64,000 nucleotides of DNA, from the NCBI GenBank assembly GCA_000092065.1, contig CP000585.1. One strand, 5' to 3'. The stretch is from Ostreococcus lucimarinus. Lineage: Eukaryota. Under the pieces are notes generated by a model that saw only the letters and a program-made list of their open reading frames with translations, made no database searches and was not told the origin of the DNA. The position numbers were made by a program, and so were the translations under genes. Shown here one piece after another: positions 9,465-22,238 of the stretch. Every line of letters begins with the position of its first letter. Within the stretch, counting starts at the first letter, position 1.

Positions 9465-10292
9465 ATGCACCTGGCGCGCGCGATGGCGTTCAGAACCGCC
9501 GCGCGAGGCGGAGGCGCGCGCGTGGCGATGCCCTCGAACGCGCCGGCGCGAGCGCGAACGTACCGCGCGAGCGACGTGACGTGCGGACGCAAGGCGGCGA
9601 AGATCGCGCAGAAGAAGGGCAAGACGGACGCGGCGCGCACGAAGCTGTACGGAAGGTACGGGAAGCTGATCGCGCAGACGGTGAAGCAGGGAGGGAGCGC
9701 GGACCCGGTGGCGAACGCGGCGCTGGGGAAACTGCTGAAGCAGGCGCAAGCGGCGAACGTGCCGAGAGATTTGATCGAAAGAAACATAAAAAAGGCGGCG
9801 GAAGGGAAATCTGGGGATTACTTTGAGCTGACGTACGAGGTGTACGGGGCGGGAGGGGTCGGGATCGTGTGCGAGGTGCTGACGGATAACGTCAACCGCG
9901 CGGCGAGCGAGACGAGAACCGCGGCGACGAAGGCTGGGGGCAAGATGGCCGAATCGGGAAGCGTTATGTTTAACTTTAATCGACGCGGCGTGTGCGTGCT
10001 CGACGGTGGCGACGAAGAGGCGGTGTTTGAGGCGGCGATGGAAGCCGGCGCCGAGGACATCGTTCCGCGACGCGACGGCGCCGAGGGTTGGGACGTCGTC
10101 TGCGAGCTGGACGATTTCTCCGCCGTGCAGGACGCGCTCAGCGAAGCGGGATTCACGATCAACGAAGACACCGGGCTGAAGTGCATCCCGATCAACGAGA
10201 TCGAGACGAGCGACGAAGACGCCGACGTCAACGACAAGATCATCGACGCGCTGCTCGATCTCGACGACGTCGACGCGGTGTACTCGCAATAA
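9465..10292 (+). CDS. YebC/PmpR-family protein (TACO1-like translational activator/transcriptional regulator), probably organelle-targeted
   Basis: ATG at 9465. YebC family signature [66 protein letters not shown], with the remainder of the fold through to the C-terminus. Confidence 0.75.
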
Positions 10293-10522
10293 AATTCGCG
10301 TCGAATCCATTCTTAACTCATTTAATACGCACATCTTCGCGTTTCTTCCGTTTTCGCGTCGCCGCGCCGCGAAAGATGCCGATTACCCGCGCGCGGCGCC
10401 GCCGCCGCGCAAAGTCTTCCCAATCCCCGCCCTCGGCGACGCGTTTTCCCTCACAGTCACGCGCGTCGCGCCCCTCGCCCTTCCGCGTCGCGCGCGGACG
10501 AACGCGAACGCGTTCGCGCGAT

Positions 10523-12301
10523 ATGTCCGCGCTCGATGTCTGCGTCGCCGCGTGCGGCGCCGCCGCGGACGCGACGTGCGCGACGGCTTGCTTCACCGCG
10601 TCCGGCTGGGAGATTCCCGCCGAACCGTTCCTCCCGAGGACGCCGAGCCTGATCCTGGGGTGCTGCCTCATCCTGCTCTCCGCCCTGTTCAGCGGCCTCA
10701 CGCTCGGGCTGATGTCGCTCGATCCCGTGGGGCTGGAGATCATCGCCGAGGGCGGCGACGCCGAGGAGCGCGAGTACGCGAAGCAAATCATTCCGGTGAG
10801 GAAAAACGGAAACCTGTTGCTGTGCACGCTGCTGCTCGGAAACACGGCGGTGAACTCCATGATATCGATTTTGATGGCGAGCGTGACGAATGGGATCATG
10901 GGCTTGTTGGTGTCGACGCTGAGCATCGTGATTTTGGGGGAGATTACGCCGCAGGCGCTGTGCTCGCGGCACGGGTTGTACATCGGGGCGAAGACGATTT
11001 GGATCATGAAGTTTTTCATAATGTTACTGTTCGTCGTCGCGTGGCCGATATCGCTCGTGCTCGATCGCATACTCGGGGTCGACATAGGGACCTTTCACAC
11101 GACGGAGGAGTTGAAGCACTTGGTGCGCGTGCACGTGGAGAAGCCGCAAGGCCAGGAGGAATCGGGGTTGAATCAACAAGACGCCACGATGCTCACGGGG
11201 GTTTTGGAGTACAAGCACATGACGGTGGCGGACGTGATGACGGATCTAGACAAGGTTTACATGATTGAACTGAACACGAAAATGTCTTTCGCCGTGTTGA
11301 TGGATATTTACAAGAGCGGGTTCACACGCATTCCCGTGTACGAGGGCACTCGCTCAAACATCGTGGGGATTTTGTTCACGAAAGATTTGATTCTCATCGA
11401 CCCAGACGATGAAATCGAATTGTCCGCAATCTTAGCGTTCCACGGCGGTAAGAATGGTGGGTACATTCGCTATGTTAGCGATAACACGACTTTGGACAAG
11501 GTGTTCCTCGAGTTCAAGACGGCTCGCATGCACTTGCTATGCGCGCACTCCGAAGACGGGCCGCCGCGCAAGGATGGATCAAACGCTCAAGTCACGGGTA
11601 TAATCACGCTCGAAGATGTGCTCGAAGCGCTCATCAAGGACGAAATTATCGACGAGACGGACAACTTGATTGACGTAAACGAGCCAACGTCAATCGTGGA
11701 AAGGCGAGTGACGTTTCGCGGCGCCGATCCGACCAAGTTTATGAGCGTCTTCGAACACAAGATGAACGAAGAAGAGAAACTCGGCGAGAATGAAGTGAGT
11801 GCGATCGTCGCGTTCTTATCGTCGAACGTGGCGGAGTTTAAAACTCTCGGCGAATACCACAAAGTGCTGCGCAAACTCATCGAAACATCAAATGTCGTAG
11901 AAAACGATGACACGAGCAGTAGCGATAGCGAAAATAGTACGATGGGGACACCGGGCGTGCACAGGGGACGCGAATACGACGAAGACCTCTTGTACAGAGC
12001 TGGAGAGCCATCAGACGTTTTTACGCTCGTCCTTCAAGGTCAAGTCAAAATCTTCGCCGGCTCCGAAGACTTTGAGTCTGAGCTCGGTCCTTGGTCGTAC
12101 ATAGGACAAAATGCGCTCATCACAGACCCGTACGTTCCTGATTTCCGCGCGTACAGTTGCGGTGGAACGAGGGTGTTGAAGATTGCTCGTGCGGACTATA
12201 AAGCCGCGCTGGCGAGCGCGGCGGTGAAAGCCATGGGCGCGGGCGCGAAGAAAAGAGTGCAGCTCGTGGGATCGAAAAGCTTTTCCGAGACCGAGCGCTG
12301 A
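10523..12301 (+). CDS. CNNM/ACDP-type metal (Mg2+) transporter: DUF21 transmembrane domain + CBS pair + cNMP-binding-like domain
   Basis: ATG at 10523. DUF21 region LILGCCLILLSALFSGLTLGLMSLD...GEITPQALCSRHGL. CBS pair with ITLEDVLEALIKDEIIDETD. C-terminal cNMP-like fold. Confidence 0.75.
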   Translation: MSALDVCVAACGAAADATCATACFTASGWEIPAEPFLPRTPSLILGCCLILLSALFSGLTLGLMSLDPVGLEIIAEGGDAEEREYAKQIIPVRKNGNLLLCTLLLGNTAVNSMISILMASVTNGIMGLLVSTLSIVILGEITPQALCSRHGLYIGAKTIWIMKFFIMLLFVVAWPISLVLDRILGVDIGTFHTTEELKHLVRVHVEKPQGQEESGLNQQDATMLTGVLEYKHMTVADVMTDLDKVYMIELNTKMSFAVLMDIYKSGFTRIPVYEGTRSNIVGILFTKDLILIDPDDEIELSAILAFHGGKNGGYIRYVSDNTTLDKVFLEFKTARMHLLCAHSEDGPPRKDGSNAQVTGIITLEDVLEALIKDEIIDETDNLIDVNEPTSIVERRVTFRGADPTKFMSVFEHKMNEEEKLGENEVSAIVAFLSSNVAEFKTLGEYHKVLRKLIETSNVVENDDTSSSDSENSTMGTPGVHRGREYDEDLLYRAGEPSDVFTLVLQGQVKIFAGSEDFESELGPWSYIGQNALITDPYVPDFRAYSCGGTRVLKIARADYKAALASAAVKAMGAGAKKRVQLVGSKSFSETER

Positions 12302-14208: not shown

Positions 14209-15054
14209 ATGCCGCCGACGCGCTCGACGACGCCGACGCGCTCGACGACGCGCGCGCGCGTCGCGACGCGCGCGAAAAGACGCGGGCGCGCGTCGCGCCG
14301 ACCGGCGCCCGGCGCGCCGACGACGCGCGCGCGCGAGGACGCGAACGACGACGACGACGACGTCGGCGCGCTCGACGACGTCGAGCGCGCGGTGTTCGAC
14401 CGCGCGGACGGCGCGTACGCGACGCCCGAACCGGTGGCGATGGACGCGATGCGAGAGATCGAGCGAGCGAACGCGCGCGCGATGCCGGCGGCGGAACGGG
14501 CGCGCGAGGAGGCGTTCAGGACGATGATGCGACGCGCGAAGGCGCGAGAGGATAAGTTGAACGCGGCGGAGCGAGCGCTGAGCGTGGACTCGTTGTTGGT
14601 GTTCGGCGCGGATGGGGTGCTGCCGGAGCTGGTGAACGCGAGAGTGGCGATGTTCGGCGTGCTCACGGGACTGGTGGTGGAGGTGACGACGGGGAAGAGT
14701 TTCTTCGAGCAGTTGGCGTGGAACGCGACGCACGGCGTGAGCGAACTCGTCGTGGGGGCGGTGATTCTGGCGAGTTGCTTGCCGAGTTTTAGGGCTGAGA
14801 GCGATGGAGAGACGATTTTTGGGTCCGGGGCGTGTAAGTGGAGGCGGGATAAGACGGCGCGCGCGGAGAGAGGGTACTTGGTGGATCCTTTGAATCTGGA
14901 CGTGCGAACGCTGCCGGGGAAGGACACCGTGCTCGGACGCGTCGGATGGGTGCCTTTCGTCGAACTGCTCAACGGGCGGTTGGCGATGATCACGATCATC
15001 GTTCTGTTCGCGGGCGAACCGCTACTCGGACATCCGTTCTTCACGTCCCCGTGA
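14209..15054 (+). CDS. LHC-like / early light-induced protein (ELIP)-family protein with two chlorophyll-binding helices, chloroplast-targeted
   Basis: ATG at 14209. Thr/Ser/Arg-rich transit-peptide-like N-terminus. Helices PELVNARVAMFGVLTGLVVE and ELLNGRLAMITIIVLFAGE match the ExxNGRxAM LHC motif. Confidence 0.55.
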   Translation: MPPTRSTTPTRSTTRARVATRAKRRGRASRRPAPGAPTTRAREDANDDDDDVGALDDVERAVFDRADGAYATPEPVAMDAMREIERANARAMPAAERAREEAFRTMMRRAKAREDKLNAAERALSVDSLLVFGADGVLPELVNARVAMFGVLTGLVVEVTTGKSFFEQLAWNATHGVSELVVGAVILASCLPSFRAESDGETIFGSGACKWRRDKTARAERGYLVDPLNLDVRTLPGKDTVLGRVGWVPFVELLNGRLAMITIIVLFAGEPLLGHPFFTSP

Positions 15055-15113: not shown

Positions 15114-16454
15114 CTATTTTTTCGCGTCGCGTTTCGCGCGAAACGCCTCGCGAAGCAGACTAATTTTTTCGTCCGTCACAGGATTACTCTCCACGGCGGA
15201 CTCGTTTTGAAGGAACAACACGCTCGTGTCGCTCGTCGCTAATCGATATCGAGATTTCTTCCGATGCTGCGCTCCTTCGTAATAACCATGCTCGCGAACC
15301 GATATCACTTCGGCGCGAGAGCAAAACTTTGAGCGTCTCATCTTTTCCCAACACGGGCGATTGGGCCAATGCGGGGTGACGACGACAAAAGTCAGCGCGG
15401 AAGACGCTGCGTCCAAGCACTCGAACAAATGTTCAGCCATGCGCGCGACGACGTCTTCGTCGAACGGAGGATTGGCTTCGAACGCGCCTCCTGAGGGCTT
15501 GCATGCGCGAAAGTCCCCCAGCGACCCGAAGGGCTTGTCCACGTCACCGTATTTGCTGTAATACATGGGCCAGCGACAGTTCAACGGCGAGGCGAAGAGC
15601 TCGCACTCGACTTTAAAGCAGTCACGCAGCACGTCGAAAACTTGCCCGTGTAACGAAGCTTGAGAACCACCGGAAAAACGAAACTGCCCGCCAGCCGCCG
15701 CGTCGTACCGACACACCATCGCGAACGCGTCGAACAGGAAATCATTTTCGACAAACTCTTTGGACGACGCATTCGCGTAAAGCGTTTTCAATTTCTCAAA
15801 GTGATCACCGTTCAACCGCACCTCGGTCTTTCCTACGCGCAGCGAAACGACGCCGTCGGCGCGTTCCTCCTTCGACACCGACGTCGCCGGTCCGCGAAAC
15901 TCATTTCTCATCACGCGCGCGCACTCCGTGGCTTTCATCATCATAACGCGCACGACCGCGTCGACTGCCTCATCGCTCGCGTCTTTCTTCTTCGCCCGTA
16001 ACTTCTTCGCCAACGCGTCGCCGCCGCCGTCTCCCGCCGGCACCAGCGGTTCGTCCTCCGACGCCGACGCCAACCACTCCTCGAACGCCGAGCACCACCG
16101 CTTGCCCAAATGCGGTCCCGCGACCCTCTCAAAGTCCATGCACAGGTGCGAGATCGCCCGCAATCGACACGCCTCGATCGCCGCGCGCGTCGCGCGTTCG
16201 TCGCTCGAGCTCGTCGCCTTCGCCGCGCGCTCGCGTCGCGCCCTCGCGCGCGCTTCGTCGACGTGCGCCGCGTCGAGCAACCCCTCGCGATAGTCGACGA
16301 CGACGCCGTCGTCGCGCGCCGTCGTCGCGGTCCTCGCGCGCTTCCGCGCGTCGTCGTCGTCGCGTCGTCCCTCGTCGCGCGCGCGTCGTCCGACCGGCGC
16401 CTTCGCGTCGTCGCCGCCGCGCGCGCGCGCGCGCATCGCCGCCCAGTTCGACAT
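15114..16454 (-). CDS. PCIF1/CAPAM-like mRNA cap-specific adenosine N6-methyltransferase homologue
   Basis: ATG at 16454..16452. C-terminal catalytic region closely matches the metazoan PCIF1 methyltransferase fold from memory: ELFASPLNCRW, catalytic NPPF in GGAFEANPPFDE, and SDTSVLFLQNE. Confidence 0.65.
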   Translation of the reverse strand: MSNWAAMRARARGGDDAKAPVGRRARDEGRRDDDDARKRARTATTARDDGVVVDYREGLLDAAHVDEARARARRERAAKATSSSDERATRAAIEACRLRAISHLCMDFERVAGPHLGKRWCSAFEEWLASASEDEPLVPAGDGGGDALAKKLRAKKKDASDEAVDAVVRVMMMKATECARVMRNEFRGPATSVSKEERADGVVSLRVGKTEVRLNGDHFEKLKTLYANASSKEFVENDFLFDAFAMVCRYDAAAGGQFRFSGGSQASLHGQVFDVLRDCFKVECELFASPLNCRWPMYYSKYGDVDKPFGSLGDFRACKPSGGAFEANPPFDEDVVARMAEHLFECLDAASSALTFVVVTPHWPNRPCWEKMRRSKFCSRAEVISVREHGYYEGAQHRKKSRYRLATSDTSVLFLQNESAVESNPVTDEKISLLREAFRAKRDAKK

Positions 16455-16524
16455 CGCGCGCGCGGACGCCTCGCGCGCGCGTCGTCGACGCGCGTCGCGC
16501 GCGCGCGTCGCGCGCGGCGCCGCG

Positions 16525-17304
16525 ATGTCCCGGCGACGTTCCGCGTCGGGCGCGCGCCGCCGCACACGACGACGACGCATGGCGCGCGCGGCGACGACGC
16601 CGACGCGCGCGACGACGCCGACGCCGACGCGCGGCGTCGCGCGACCGCGACGCGGCGACGCGCGCGCGCGACCGCGACGCGCGACGCGCGCGAGCGCGAA
16701 AAAGCGAAAAGGTTTCGCCGAACTCTTGGGCGGCGCGGCGAGCGACGACGGAGACGCGCGAGCGGAGCGCGCGGGCGCGACGACGAGCGCGAAGGGAAAA
16801 GCGGCGCGGAGCGCGGAGGCGCGATGCCCGTGCGGGGGAGGGCGCGATGGGCTGACGTACGCGAGCTGTTGCAAGAGGTTTCACGACGGCGACGCGTACC
16901 CGGAGGATCCGGTGACGCTGATGCGCACGCGGTTTAGCGCGTACGCCAAGGGAAAAGGACTTTATGTGGTGAAAACAACGCATCCGGATAACCCGCTGCT
17001 GATGGAGGGGGCGAAGACGAAGACGGGGAAGGTGGTGAGCACGCTGGCGCGAGACGTCGAGGCGACGTGTAAAAAGGTTCGGTTTTACGACTTGGACATC
17101 GTGCGCGACGTCAAGGGCAAGGGTAAGGGCGACGCGCGCGAGCATTTGGTTGGGTTTCGTTACAAGTGTCGGGTCGTCGGGCAACAGGGGTTCAACGAGC
17201 TTCCCGAGGAGAAACACGCGGAGCTCTCGACGTTTCGCACGACGAGGGACGACGACGGGAACGAGGTGTGGAAATTCGTCGACGGAATCCAAGGATCGAC
17301 TTAG
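16525..17304 (+). CDS. SEC-C motif / YchJ-family (UPF0225) protein with NTF2-like domain, organelle-targeted
   Basis: ATG at 16525. CPCGGG...YASCC SEC-C metal-binding motif followed by an NTF2-like fold. Confidence 0.6.
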   Translation: MSRRRSASGARRRTRRRRMARAATTPTRATTPTPTRGVARPRRGDARARPRRATRASAKKRKGFAELLGGAASDDGDARAERAGATTSAKGKAARSAEARCPCGGGRDGLTYASCCKRFHDGDAYPEDPVTLMRTRFSAYAKGKGLYVVKTTHPDNPLLMEGAKTKTGKVVSTLARDVEATCKKVRFYDLDIVRDVKGKGKGDAREHLVGFRYKCRVVGQQGFNELPEEKHAELSTFRTTRDDDGNEVWKFVDGIQGST

Positions 17305-17439: not shown

Positions 17440-18057
17440 ATGCCCGCGCTGACTTCGACCGCGCGCGCGGCCACGCACGCGTTCGCCACGCATCGCGGCG
17501 TCAACTCCCGTCGCAATCCGCGCTCGATGCAAGCCGTTCGCGCCTTCTTCGGCGGCGCCGCCACGTCATCAAAGTCCGCGCACGAGTTCACCGTGAAAGA
17601 CATCGACGGCAAGGACGTCTCGATGTCCAAGTACGCCGGAAAGGTGTGCCTCGTCGTGAACGTCGCCTCCGAGTGAGGCTTGACGGACCAAAACTACAAG
17701 GAGCTCGTCGCGCTGGACGCGAAGTACGCCAACCTTGAAGTTTTGGCTTTCCCGTCGAACGAGTTCGGCGGACAAGAACCGGGAAGCGCGGCGCAGATCA
17801 AGGCGTTCGCTCGGGAAAAGTACGGGGCAAAGTTCCCGCTGTTCGAAAAGACCACGGTAAACGGTGCGAGTGCGAGCCCGTTGTACAAGCATTTGAAGGA
17901 ATCCGCGCCCGAGTCTGGTTTGCTCGCGATGGCTGGTTCAGAAATCAAGTGGAACTTTGCCAAGTTTTTGCTCGATAAGGACGGCAAGACGATCGCGCGT
18001 TACGCGCCGACGTCTAGCCCTTTTAGTATCGAGGGGGACATCATCAAGGCGCTTTAA
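17440..18057 (+). CDS. Selenocysteine-containing glutathione peroxidase; in-frame TGA (Sec) at 17674..17676 splits it into two track ORFs
   Basis: ATG at 17440. GPx active-site motif VNVASE-U-GLTDQNYKEL, with TGA exactly at the U/C position of GPx families. Frame and GPx motifs (FPSNEFGGQEPG, WNFAKFLLDKDGK) continue to TAA at 18055..18057. Confidence 0.85.
17674..17676 (+). other. In-frame UGA selenocysteine codon of the GPx gene
   Basis: TGA between GAG (Glu) and GGC (Gly) within the conserved NVAS-x-U-G-x-T GPx active site. Confidence 0.8.
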
Positions 18058-18257
18058 TACGTCATACTGTCACGACAAAGACAGTCGCAACAGCGCAAGA
18101 TTTGCCGCGGAGAGGTGACGCTTCATCCAATAAATCGACGTCTGTCGAGGGGATGGGCCGAGTTAACATCCGCGTCGTTTCGCTCGCGCTAACATTCTTT
18201 TACATTCTCTGAACACAGTAATACAATCTACGCTATGCGGCTGCGCAATGCTCTAAA

Positions 18258-19523
18258 CTATTCTAAAAAATCGGCGACGTATTCTGCCACCGCGAGGCTC
18301 GACGTCAAGCCGGGTGACTCAAAGCCAAACAGATGCACCAAACCAACCGCACCGTGCTGACTTTCAGTTTGAAATACAAAGTCAGTCGTCGCGCCGGGCT
18401 CATCAGTGTCACCTGCTTCGTTGATGAGCTTAGGTCGGATACCCGTGAACGCCGGTCGAAGCGCGCCGTCTTGCAAACCAGGCCAGTACTCGCGAATCGC
18501 CTCGTAAAACGAACGCACGCGCGCTGGGTTCATCGTGTAATCGATGTCGTCTATCCATTCAATGTCAGGACCAAACTTGCACTTGTCGTAAACATCGCGA
18601 GTGAAGTGCACACCCAGACCTCCTTCTCTCGGCAAAGGATACACGAGCCGCTGAAAAGGCGCCGAGTAGCCTTTTTTCAGCTCACAATACATCCCTCGCG
18701 CGAAATACAAAGGCGGTGGCGGCGTCACGGAGATGTCGTAAACATCTAACAACCGATCGCACAACCGGTGTGCGTATAGCCCGGCGGCGTTCACTAAGCG
18801 CGGCGTAGAAATTACGCGACGCGACTTTGTCTTCACCTGAAACGTTTTGCTCAGCCCGCGCGTGATCTCAACCACTTCATCCCCGAGCGCCACCGTTGTT
18901 CGCCCATCTCGCACGCAATCGCGACGAAACGACTCCATGAGCTCTTGAACGTCGACGATACTCGTCGAAGGCGACAAAACCCCAGCGTAACCTCGCACAT
19001 TTTTCTCGTACGCCGTGAGTTGCTCCGACGTGAGCAACGCCAAGTCGTCGACGTCGTTCATCTGCGCTCTCGTAATCATCGCCTCGAGCGCGTCCATCTG
19101 ACTCTCATCCCGCGCGACGATGAGTTTACCTATGTTTTCCCACTTTACATCTTTCTTCTCACAGTATTTCACAATCTTTCGCCGCCCTTCGACGCAAAAC
19201 TTTGCCTTCGCGCTTCCCGGGACGTAATGCATCCCCGCGTGTAACACCTCCGAGTTCTTTGAGCTCGTCTCCGCGCCGATGCTCTCCGCTTTATCGATGA
19301 CGCACACGCGCATACCACGCAAAGACAAGGCGCGCGCGCACGCCAGTCCGATGACACCGGCTCCGACGACGACGGCGTCGTAGCGTTCATCAGCGTCAAA
19401 GCCGCGAAGGGCGCCCGGACGGAACGTCGTCGCGCGCGCTGTGCGGGCGCGCCCGTGCGGTAGCGCGCGCGCGCGTGACGTCAATACATCACGAGACACG
19501 CGTTGCGCATCGTGGACCCGCAT
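18258..19523 (-). CDS. L-2-hydroxyglutarate dehydrogenase (FAD-dependent oxidoreductase), mitochondrial-type
   Basis: ATG at 19523..19521 (the track start is TTG). Dinucleotide-binding motif YDAVVVGAGVIGLACARAL. L2HGDH-like core SEVLHAGMHYVPGSAKAKFCVEG...KLIVARDE. Confidence 0.75.
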   Translation of the reverse strand: MRVHDAQRVSRDVLTSRARALPHGRARTARATTFRPGALRGFDADERYDAVVVGAGVIGLACARALSLRGMRVCVIDKAESIGAETSSKNSEVLHAGMHYVPGSAKAKFCVEGRRKIVKYCEKKDVKWENIGKLIVARDESQMDALEAMITRAQMNDVDDLALLTSEQLTAYEKNVRGYAGVLSPSTSIVDVQELMESFRRDCVRDGRTTVALGDEVVEITRGLSKTFQVKTKSRRVISTPRLVNAAGLYAHRLCDRLLDVYDISVTPPPPLYFARGMYCELKKGYSAPFQRLVYPLPREGGLGVHFTRDVYDKCKFGPDIEWIDDIDYTMNPARVRSFYEAIREYWPGLQDGALRPAFTGIRPKLINEAGDTDEPGATTDFVFQTESQHGAVGLVHLFGFESPGLTSSLAVAEYVADFLE

Positions 19524-19570
19524 GTAGGGCGTCAACGTCTGCCGCTGCGCGCGCGAACGCTCGTCGACTC

Positions 19571-20716
19571 CTACGCCCGAGGGTCCTCGTCAACCTTTGC
19601 GAAGTTCGTGGCGACCTTTTGTCGCAAGAAGTCGGCGTATCGCACCTCGCGCGGAGATGAGTAACCCGATTCCAAAGCACTTTGATCCGTGAGATGCCTG
19701 TTCGATATCACAGCGTCGTAGTTGGGTTCATAAAAGAACGCAATCGAAATACGAGGACGCGCGCAGTTTTCGTCGCTCGGCTTTCGGACGACGCGATGCC
19801 GGGTGGCTTTGAGACTGTCGTCCGTGAAGAGCTGAAGCATCTCGCCAACGTTACAGACCATGTGTTCTGGATGGTGAGGAACATCGATAATCTTGCCTGA
19901 TACTTCGATTTGTAAGCCTGGATGCGTGGCGTGAATGAAAGTCAGCAAACCGTAGTCGGTGTGCCAACCGCACGAAGTTTTCTCGCCATCGGAATCGCAA
20001 CCGGGCGAGTTTATGAGCCGTAAGATCCAAAACGGACATCCCGCGATGTCATCCTCGAGTATGTCCTCTGTGAAGTCGTCCGCTATGCGATAGTGGAGGT
20101 ATTCTTTCCGAATCGCGCCCAATAGCGCGCGCAAAATATATTTACCAATGCGCGTCATCCCTTTCGCGTATCTGTCGACGCGCTCGTTCAAATCGTTCGG
20201 ACCAATGTACGGATGCGGCGCGCGCAAACCACCATCACTAACGGCACACGGTCGATAAAAATCAATGGCTTCGTGCTGATCTCGTCTCCCATTCGTCACA
20301 TTCTCCCCTATTCGTTGATATCCTCTTCCGTTCGTCATCGCGTACGCGTCCTTGTCAGCCTGTTTCTGTGAAAACCACGCGTCGACGTGTGCAAAGGTCA
20401 AATCTTTCCCCTCGATCAGACACCCTTCTGACCGGTCATGCCGCGCGTACTCCCAGAGAAAGTCGTCGGGCAAATCATCACGGGTGTTCAGCGTTAACAG
20501 GTCAACGACGTCGGCCCACGGGATTGATTCCTTTTGAATGGTGCATACGATGGAAAAGAAGCCGAACCGTTCGCACGCGGCGAGAAGCGCTCGACCGACC
20601 TCGCGTCGTCGGGCAAGAATGAAGCGAACGTCCTCGTTCGGATCGCCGGCGCTGAGTAAAGGGCCGACATCGATGACGGGGTACTCGGACGCTGCGTCTT
20701 CGCGCGCGGCGGGCAT
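19571..20716 (-). CDS. 2-oxoglutarate/Fe(II)-dependent dioxygenase (isopenicillin-N-synthase-like superfamily)
   Basis: ATG at 20716..20714 (the track start is GTG). HxD (WHTDYGLLTF)...H (ATRHRVV) facial triad. DIOX_N-like N-terminus YPVIDVGPL. Confidence 0.65.
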   Translation of the reverse strand: MPAAREDAASEYPVIDVGPLLSAGDPNEDVRFILARRREVGRALLAACERFGFFSIVCTIQKESIPWADVVDLLTLNTRDDLPDDFLWEYARHDRSEGCLIEGKDLTFAHVDAWFSQKQADKDAYAMTNGRGYQRIGENVTNGRRDQHEAIDFYRPCAVSDGGLRAPHPYIGPNDLNERVDRYAKGMTRIGKYILRALLGAIRKEYLHYRIADDFTEDILEDDIAGCPFWILRLINSPGCDSDGEKTSCGWHTDYGLLTFIHATHPGLQIEVSGKIIDVPHHPEHMVCNVGEMLQLFTDDSLKATRHRVVRKPSDENCARPRISIAFFYEPNYDAVISNRHLTDQSALESGYSSPREVRYADFLRQKVATNFAKVDEDPRA

Positions 20717-20813
20717 GCCGTCGAAAGCCGCCGCCGCGCGAGGCGCGTACTGACGCACGAAGGCTCGGTCAAAGCGTCTATACGTATCACAAGGGCATAT
20801 TCGAGAGCAACTA

Positions 20814-22238
20814 TCAGTTTGGTCGTTCGGAGTAATCGAGAGTGGTCCAATCGTCGAGATCGAGGAGCGCCAAGACGTCTAAAATTTGCTCGTCCTCGAC
20901 GTCTACAATTTCCTCGTCCTCGACGTCCTCGACGTCATCTGTGGCGGGTGGTTCTTCGGGTGAGTCAATCAACGTCGACGTCGACGGCTCGCCAGTCGTC
21001 TTTTTCTTGTTCTTCTTTTTCTTCTTAGAGGGTGCGGGGGATATGACTCGTGGTACGTCATCCTTTGCCAGCGCTTCGGCGTCCATGCGTCTGACTGCTT
21101 CGTCGGTGAGCTCGGCCATGGCGAGCGCGCTTTCCATGACGGCGTTCAAGCGTTCTCGGGGCCAAGCTCTAGGTTCTGTCTTCAGGTACACCACAATTGC
21201 TTCGAAGTCGTCGAGTTTGAGTAAATCCACCGCGGCTTCGTTCAGAAAGGATATACAGATGCGCATGATGAGCGACGGAGAACGTTGCGCTAAGAGACAG
21301 TCCATGACGCGTCCACTGAATCGAACGGGAAAGTCAGAAGCAAAGGCAGACATGAACCACCCCGACGCGTATAACACAGGTGCAACGTCATGCTTTTCTA
21401 AGTGTTGCGCCAGTGTAGCGTTCTTCACGCGAAGTACGACGGCGAGTTGGCGTAGACGCGTCTTCAAGCCTTCCATCGAGCGTAGGTACATCGAGCGGAA
21501 ATCGCTGCTCTCCATGAGCGTGACGAACGCCGCGAACGCACGATTTTCGGATAGGTATATCAGAAGCACGCCCGCGACGAAAGCCATGCCTTGGCAGTAA
21601 CCAACTTTTGTGTCGTGTATCGCGTACGCCTTCAGTATGTTGGCCAACGCCCGTCGCCCGTCGGCGCCCTTCGTCGTCGCCGCGGCGAAAAATTCATGAT
21701 TCGGAAACGTCCTCGACAGATCCCGCTCGATAGCCGCACCGACGTTCTCGTCCCAGCCTTTCGATGCTTTAACGCACGCACCATCCCCAGCGCTCGTCTC
21801 CGCCACGCGCGCGCGTTCGCTCTTCGCCTCGAAGGCCTCTCGCAACACTTCGTAGTACCCGCCGTCCGCCGTCAGCACCGCCGCCATGTCGTCCAAGATA
21901 TCGCCCTCCGCGCCGTCGCTCGAGCTCGCCAATCCGTGCCCACCCTCGCGCTCGGCGCGATCGAGCAGGGACTCCCACAACTGCGTCCGCATGAACCCGG
22001 GCGAGTCGGCGTAACAGTTCGCGCCCACTTGCAAATCACAAAGTTCATCCGTCTCCAACTCCCGATTCTTTCGACTCAGCGTCGCCGCGTGCTGCAGCGC
22101 GCGACCGAGCCGTTCGCCAAACTCTCCGCCAACCTTTCCGAGCGCGCTCGTCGTCGATTTCGCCGCGCGCGCGCGTATCGTGGCGTCGTTTATCAGTGAA
22201 TTAAGCCCAGCCGACGCGCGTTCGAAAAAGTTCGGCAT
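20814..22238 (-). CDS. TBC-domain Rab GTPase-activating protein
   Basis: ATG at 22238..22236. Arg-finger IERDLSRTFP and Gln-finger YCQGMAFVAG motifs. C-terminal poly-Lys tract. Confidence 0.75.
   Translation of the reverse strand: MPNFFERASAGLNSLINDATIRARAAKSTTSALGKVGGEFGERLGRALQHAATLSRKNRELETDELCDLQVGANCYADSPGFMRTQLWESLLDRAEREGGHGLASSSDGAEGDILDDMAAVLTADGGYYEVLREAFEAKSERARVAETSAGDGACVKASKGWDENVGAAIERDLSRTFPNHEFFAAATTKGADGRRALANILKAYAIHDTKVGYCQGMAFVAGVLLIYLSENRAFAAFVTLMESSDFRSMYLRSMEGLKTRLRQLAVVLRVKNATLAQHLEKHDVAPVLYASGWFMSAFASDFPVRFSGRVMDCLLAQRSPSLIMRICISFLNEAAVDLLKLDDFEAIVVYLKTEPRAWPRERLNAVMESALAMAELTDEAVRRMDAEALAKDDVPRVISPAPSKKKKKNKKKTTGEPSTSTLIDSPEEPPATDDVEDVEDEEIVDVEDEQILDVLALLDLDDWTTLDYSERPN

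Follow-up and report, generated by a model that had tools for sequence, protein, structure and literature searches.

The PCIF1 (CAPAM) proteins are the most widespread eukaryotic clade of the M.EcoKI/M.TaqI-type group of methyltransferases. They have been traced back to the most recent ancestor shared by eukaryotes (LECA), are 'usually' fused to a WW domain and include Ostreococcus tauri in their phyletic table (Iyer, Zhang and Aravind, PMC4738411); a 2022 survey likewise places PCIF1 in LECA (PMC8868631). The WW domain is not required for catalysis in vitro (PMC8287941), the human N553A and F556G mutations lower activity (PMC11550742; PMC8287941), and for cap recognition a review considers Arg239, Arg269 and Glu563 to be crucial (PMC11550742). 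We analysed a PCIF1 homologue encoded on the minus strand of a 64,000-nt stretch of Ostreococcus lucimarinus contig CP000585.1 (assembly GCA_000092065.1), hereafter the window. By analogy with CAPAM, this WW-less gene very probably encodes a functional S-adenosylmethionine (SAM)-dependent N6-adenine RNA methyltransferase of the PCIF1/CAPAM family that would work as CAPAM does.

The protein belongs almost certainly to the PCIF1 family. The only Pfam family above threshold is PF12237, matched over profile positions 1-176 of 176 (E = 1.4e-59 and 201 bits, compared to a curated cutoff of 31.1 bits). The Pfam name of this profile, 'PCIF1_WW', is a misnomer, as it models the CAPAM-like methyltransferase domain and no WW domain (PMC7641849). 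The Pfam models for MT-A70, N6AMT/HemK and other N6-methyltransferases did not match even at E <= 1. When all PDB sequences were searched with phmmer, the sole matches were zebrafish CAPAM (7.7e-36) and human CAPAM (4.2e-34), with residues 190-439 aligned to chain positions 252-504. A 20-sequence profile reached the CAPAM chains at 3.9e-84 and 2.1e-82 and extended into the helical domain; its alignment with human CAPAM goes back to chain position 24, which corresponds to the inferred residue 188.

The predicted structure agrees with this assignment. An AlphaFold2 model built from the 20-sequence alignment has a mean predicted local distance difference test score (pLDDT) of 83.5 and a predicted template-modelling score of 0.82, and only residues 1-48 are disordered (pLDDT below 50). 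Using this model as a Foldseek query, we found six CAPAM entries with E-values between 1e-19 and 8.5e-23, and the remaining entries were no better than 1.4e-2. In the model, a CAPAM-specific helical domain composed of helices at residues 65-77, 84-111, 113-128, 141-155 and 161-184 is predicted to pack on the Rossmann methyltransferase domain. The preliminary description of this DNA had aligned the C-terminal 250 residues with the PCIF1 catalytic domain, which the phmmer alignment bears out. It had proposed a profile search and had left room for a better match to MT-A70 or N6AMT, or for an NPPF motif sitting in another fold; instead, PF12237 was returned over its full length as the sole Pfam family, and only CAPAM was significant in the structural search.

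All Mamiellales-like orthologues also share a short segment, [Y/F/R]-R-x-G-L-L-D, placed after the disordered linker and before the helical domain (residues 55-62; ~16269-16292, minus strand). Its modelled block at residues 51-60 has a pLDDT of 85, suggesting that the segment may pack onto the folded core.

The catalytic motifs are intact. The protein contains ECELFASPLNCRWP (residues ~283-296), EANPPFDED and SVLFLQNES (residues ~412-420), so that the three motifs quoted in the preliminary description are all present. Across 88 homologues, the columns of E285, S289, P290, N292, D306, G310, N328, P329, P330 and H389 are invariant; E285, S289, P290, N292, N328, P329 and P330 are invariant in the 20-sequence alignment as well, and at least 90% of the sequences in both alignments keep F287, A288 and F331. 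The fourth position of NPPF is F in 35 of 38 family sequences and Y in the other three. The human residues N553 and F556 correspond to N328 and F331 in the algal protein. Considering the general architecture of N6-adenine methyltransferases (PMC4738411), ELFASPLN is the probable SAM-binding motif. The intact NPPF had earlier been read as a sign of catalytic competence, and this reading is reasonable; from its sequence, the enzyme is highly likely to be active. The m6Am at mRNA caps that was suggested alongside is an inference.

The residues that contact the cap appear to be only partly retained. We mapped them using a 38-member family alignment, with which the HMM alignment to CAPAM agrees. 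The published numbering was taken as that of zebrafish by inference, since an offset of 177 yields R, R and E at positions 239, 269 and 563, while the human chain with an offset of 164 yields E, N and A and does not fit. Accordingly numbered, zebrafish E563 is kept as E333 and R269 becomes K150, which is still basic. The R239 column is occupied by E in 11 and by R in 9 of the 38 diverse family members; therefore, the R239 contact is not a family-wide one.

The gene is complete. On the minus strand, a longer open frame runs over 15114-16874 and has the PCIF1 homologue as its 3' part; an ATG at 16454 yields a 446-aa protein with the N-terminus MSNWAAMRAR. The same N-terminal peptide is found in the orthologues P0004, P0006, P0007 and P0012, even though their overall identity is just 45-54% (MSNWAAMRARMR, MSNWLALKSQ and MSNWAALRAT). 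Because the peptide is kept at this divergence, 16454 is the true start, as the preliminary description had placed it, and these sequences indicate that the database models of greater length (478 and 476 aa) are gene-caller extensions. The frame is uninterrupted and aligns with homologues from end to end, and the gene therefore has no intron. An exact-sequence look-up of the protein gave no record; near-identical cluster members exist.

We read the locus as a working nuclear gene of a marine green alga of the Mamiellales type. The gene order RabGAP, 2OG oxygenase, DAO, glutathione peroxidase (GPx), YchJ, PCIF1, light-harvesting-complex (LHC)-like and CNNM is shared, mirrored, with the related loci L001, L004-L006 and L007, which carry the orthologues P0007 (48% identity; L001, an NCBI assembly), P0012 (45%; L004-L006) and P0002 (92%; L007). 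Compared to the 92%-identical orthologue, the ratio of nonsynonymous to synonymous substitution rates (dN/dS) is 0.21 for the whole gene, with 0.14 for its catalytic and 0.43 for its N-terminal half, and the gene is under purifying selection. Its GC content (0.621) and third-position GC content (0.747) agree with those of the window and the neighbouring genes. We found no second PCIF1 copy in the 64-kb window. The attribution of the DNA to a green-algal-type genome, made beforehand from the letters alone, is supported by the chlorophyll-binding neighbour, by the dense and intron-poor layout and by relatives in marine metagenomes; we would place it as Mamiellales-like, in the Ostreococcus/Micromonas group.

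The protein has no WW domain, as had been noted before: Pfam gave no WW match at E <= 1. The start codon lies only ~70 bp from the divergent YchJ-like open reading frame (ORF), and a missed WW exon is consequently very unlikely. Its closest relatives share this architecture. Among the 87 closest full-length 50%-cluster representatives, all of which carry PF12237, none has a WW domain (Pfam, E <= 0.001), while one is fused to an RRM and one to CCCH fingers.

In place of a WW domain, the N-terminus carries a short motif with SNW at residues 2-4. Its general form is M-x(0-2)-[S/A/K]-N-W-x-x-[L/M/S] followed by a basic stretch; here, a short helix is predicted at residues 3-11, and residues ~12-48 form a disordered, basic linker that resembles a nuclear localisation signal. 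Of 142 distant cluster representatives, 9 have the motif, each time at the extreme N-terminus (P0094, P0096, P0099, P0116, P0117, P0134, P0153, P0154 and P0184), and it had 0 matches in 53,149 background residues. Searching the PDB with the SNW peptide gave chance matches only, all of them to de novo TIM barrels. The motif may resemble the N-terminal 'SNWxxLQ' of the Rex4/REXO4 exonucleases. We speculate that the SNW motif is a short linear motif for recruitment or localisation. It is the one feature of the gene for which we found no earlier description; that the family exists, that it occurs in Ostreococcus and is missing from land plants, and that its members can be WW-less is already documented or commonplace.

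PCIF1 is a large and unevenly distributed family. It comprises 2,556 cluster representatives at E <= 1e-3 and 245 at E <= 1e-30, and a second protein search, for which a profile of 88 sequences served as query, gave nearly the same 24 matches, with an Aureococcus protein as the sole addition and no useful gain in taxonomic breadth. Several orthologues are annotated by the JGI pipeline as 'phosphorylated CTD-interacting factor 1'. The supplementary PCIF1 alignment of the 2022 survey contains three O. tauri entries (XP_003080912.2, XP_022838967.1 and OUS47426.1), eight sequences from Emiliania and two from each kinetoplastid, and none with the prefixes 24-28, which by inferred numbering are Cyanidioschyzon, Arabidopsis, Selaginella, Physcomitrella and Chlamydomonas (PMC8868631). 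Thus, as far as this alignment indicates, several protists have more than one copy, and the distribution within Archaeplastida is patchy. According to a 2025 plant review, 'Plants lack homologs of ... PCIF1', and rice poly(A) RNA is without N6,2'-O-dimethyladenosine (m6Am) at the cap (PMC12973405), in agreement with the earlier remark that PCIF1 is not a standard component in land plants. The preliminary description was right that a green alga carries PCIF1; the surprise that it implied does not hold, as the family goes back to LECA and O. tauri sequences were already in a published alignment (PMC4738411, PMC8868631). Literature searches on PF12237, on PCIF1 in Viridiplantae and on PCIF1 with m6Am in algae found nothing relevant.

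The O. tauri prefix in that alignment was inferred from recognised accessions, and only trimmed fragments can be compared. Over the trimmed columns, the window protein is 63% identical to XP_022838967.1 and 46-47% identical to the other two O. tauri sequences and to human PCIF1, making XP_022838967.1 the probable orthologue.

A separate observation concerns a protein of 366 aa, called 'PCIF1 family methyltransferase' by NCBI and binned in a Sulfobacillus metagenome-assembled genome (L008, 2313-3413, plus strand; GCA_054611035.1, contig JBTRTI010000244.1). Its identity to the algal catalytic domain is 34%, and both ELFASPMN and NPPF are present. Its contig is 5.5 kb long with a GC content of ~0.53 and an AAA ATPase neighbour, and may be mis-binned. 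NCBIfam has no model that matches either this bacterial homologue or the algal protein. PCIF1 is said to have no prokaryotic homologues (PMC8868631).

If the algal enzyme works like vertebrate CAPAM, then RNA polymerase II transcripts would be held by their 5' cap in a pocket between the helical and catalytic domains, and the NPPF loop would position the cap-adjacent adenosine. A methyl group would then be transferred from SAM to the N6 of this adenosine, producing m6Am (or m6A at the +1 position). The enzyme would presumably act on RNA, be specific for the cap and reside in the nucleus. Because the WW domain is absent, recruitment to the polymerase in the manner of animals is impossible, and the enzyme would reach a transcribing polymerase by another route, or not be recruited to it. 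A further proposal is that the whole prasinophyte orthogroup writes cap m6Am (or +1 m6A), with the tether between the WW domain and the polymerase's C-terminal domain (CTD) replaced by the SNW peptide and the basic linker. We put this forward tentatively, as a possibility that is somewhat doubtful.

Several observations weigh against a role at the cap. The helical domain is ~100 residues shorter than that of vertebrates (human CAPAM has two insertions), the charge at zebrafish R239 is reversed to E126 at a position anchored by the adjacent, nearly invariant W127, and a protein without a WW domain has no known link to RNA polymerase II. The three O. tauri fragments score alike against human PCIF1 over the trimmed columns, and none stands out. 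With three paralogues in O. tauri, the copy in the window need not be the cap enzyme, and with two in each kinetoplastid and eight in Emiliania as well, substrates may have diversified. We found no biochemical or transcript-level data on an algal PCIF1 in the searchable literature. Because of the three paralogues, the R239 substitution, the short helical domain and the missing WW domain, we regard it as evenly balanced, on the analogy with CAPAM, whether the main substrate of the window copy is the cap-adjacent adenosine of mRNA. The same four features, together with the close match to one O. tauri sequence only, would suit an active paralogue that mainly methylates something else, be it a small nuclear or other non-coding RNA, an adenosine at an internal site or a cap variant distinct from m7GpppAm, leaving any role in cap m6Am to other paralogues. 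Protist CAPAM-like domains are indeed fused to RNA-related modules (PMC7641849), as are the two fusion proteins among the 87 close relatives. However, the protein retains E333 and, at the R269 position, a basic residue, and we found no alternative substrate in the literature for any enzyme of the PCIF1 family; we consider this alternative unlikely, though well worth weighing.

The readings in which the locus is not an active host PCIF1 were rejected, given an intact, syntenic, stand-alone gene, an intact NPPF and a match to PF12237 only. Drosophila Pcif1 retains its WW domain and has lost catalytic residues. In the algal protein, NPPF is intact with N-P-P invariant, dN/dS is lowest in the catalytic half, and the WW domain that pure scaffolding would need is absent. 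It is therefore very improbable that the protein is catalytically dead or purely regulatory, as reported from flies, even though m6Am went undetected in fly, worm and yeast samples (PMC8287941; PMC10544176). The NPPF motif is common to several families (PMC8287941), and PCIF1 itself is placed in the M.EcoKI/M.TaqI group (PMC4738411), which could suggest MT-A70 (METTL3-14), N6AMT1/HemK, METTL5, METTL16 or a DNA 6mA enzyme resembling the M.EcoKI/M.TaqI-type ancestors. Yet none of these families had a Pfam match at E <= 1, the Dam family gave no better match either, and the CAPAM-specific helical domain is present, so that such an identity is hardly credible. Finally, PCIF1-like methyltransferase domains are embedded in DIRS1-retrotransposon polyproteins, whose copies are described as inactivated by substitution of catalytic residues (PMC4738411). 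The same residues are intact in the algal protein, its 446-aa ORF has no reverse transcriptase or recombinase module, it has the same host genes on either side in at least three diverged relatives, and its composition is that of its neighbours. An origin from DIRS1, a virus or a contaminant has a negligible probability.

Table 1. Coordinates of the PCIF1 homologue, its domains and motifs, and the neighbouring genes in the window.
Feature	Coordinates	Strand	Remarks
PCIF1/CAPAM-family methyltransferase coding sequence, complete, single-exon	15114..16454	-	446 codons and a stop at 15114-15116
SNW motif M-S-N-W-A-A-M-R-A-R, residues 1-10	16425..16454	-	Kept in all Mamiellales-like orthologues
Reduced helical domain, residues ~64-190	15885..16265	-	Equivalent to CAPAM's helical domain, which contributes to holding the m7G cap
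Methyltransferase (Rossmann) domain, residues ~191-440	15135..15884	-	Includes the PF12237 match, residues 221-394
ELFASPLN, residues 285-292	15579..15602	-	Probably binds SAM and is similar to motif I; FECFASPLN in the human protein
Catalytic NPPF, residues 328-331	15462..15473	-	Aligns with human N553-F556
RabGAP-TBC	20814-22238	-	
2OG-Fe(II) oxygenase	19571-20758	-	
FAD oxidoreductase (DAO)	18258-19535	-	
Glutathione peroxidase	17440-18057	+	
YchJ-like	16525-17304	+	
Chlorophyll a/b-binding-family (LHC-like) protein	end at 15054	+	
CNNM	10088-12301	+	

The start codons of PCIF1 and the YchJ-like gene are divergent and at most ~70-130 bp apart (16455-16580), compared to 101 bp in L001 and 68 bp in L004. 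The intergenic sequence, which is extremely GC-rich and of CGCG type, is probably a very compact, bidirectional promoter region shared by the two genes.

The neighbouring GPx gene has an in-frame TGA (17674-17676) at its active-site position, VVNVASE-TGA-GLTDQNY. The Pfam GSHPx profile is matched at positions 2-31 before the TGA and at positions 34-108 after it, which points to a selenocysteine-containing enzyme. In L001 and L004-L006, GSHPx has been called as two separate genes, as would be expected if the in-frame stop is present there too. On the plus strand, 3' of the GPx stop, a hairpin at 18108-18172 resembles a selenocysteine insertion sequence (SECIS), with a 5' GUGA, an apical AAUAAA and a 3' GA, and we tentatively assign it as one. 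Rfam matched nothing in the window and no SECIS near GPx (E <= 1), and the folding z-score of the hairpin is just -1.45.

These results amount to a correct functional annotation rather than a discovery, and their comparative value is modest. They divide the green lineage, with land plants, according to reviews, lacking PCIF1 and the Mamiellales keeping at least one conserved, selected and apparently active copy. These easily cultured picoalgae are consequently a natural system for asking whether cap m6Am occurs outside animals and what a WW-less PCIF1 does. If the window copy is a cap writer, then the mark would be older than animals and would have been lost on the way to land plants. If the cap writer is also recruited by its SNW motif, then abundant marine picophytoplankton would carry methylation of the cap-adjacent adenine, and land plants and, by inferred numbering, Chlamydomonas would have lost both the mark and the gene. 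If it is not a cap writer, the protist paralogues would hint at unknown RNA substrates.

Compared to vertebrate CAPAM/PCIF1, the algal protein has the same succession of a helical and a Rossmann methyltransferase domain, the same FASPLN and NPPF motifs and the same glutamate at E333 (zebrafish E563). It differs by its size (446 aa versus 704 aa in human PCIF1; PMC10544176), by its shorter helical domain and by Glu126 and Lys150 in place of zebrafish R239 and R269. The layout also differs at the N-terminus: animal PCIF1 begins with a WW domain and a linker, and its WW domain binds the Ser5-phosphorylated CTD, whereas the algal protein has the SNW motif in this place and a disordered N-terminus.

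Among described sequences, O. tauri XP_022838967.1 shares the motif variants ELFASPLN(A/C)RWP and TFVV(I/V)TP(Y/H)W, although it comes from another species or genus and is only ~63% identical even on conserved columns. The WW-less relatives from protists and fungi (for example, Obelidium mucronatum P0018, Pythium insidiosum P0114 and Aureococcus anophagefferens P0237) likewise have PF12237 and NPPF; they are 30-40% identical, most are missing the SNW motif, and some have RRM or CCCH fusions. The PCIF1-like domains of DIRS1 retrotransposons belong to the same clade (PMC4738411) but lie within polyproteins and are predicted to be inactive, whereas the algal gene stands alone, is syntenic and has an intact active site.
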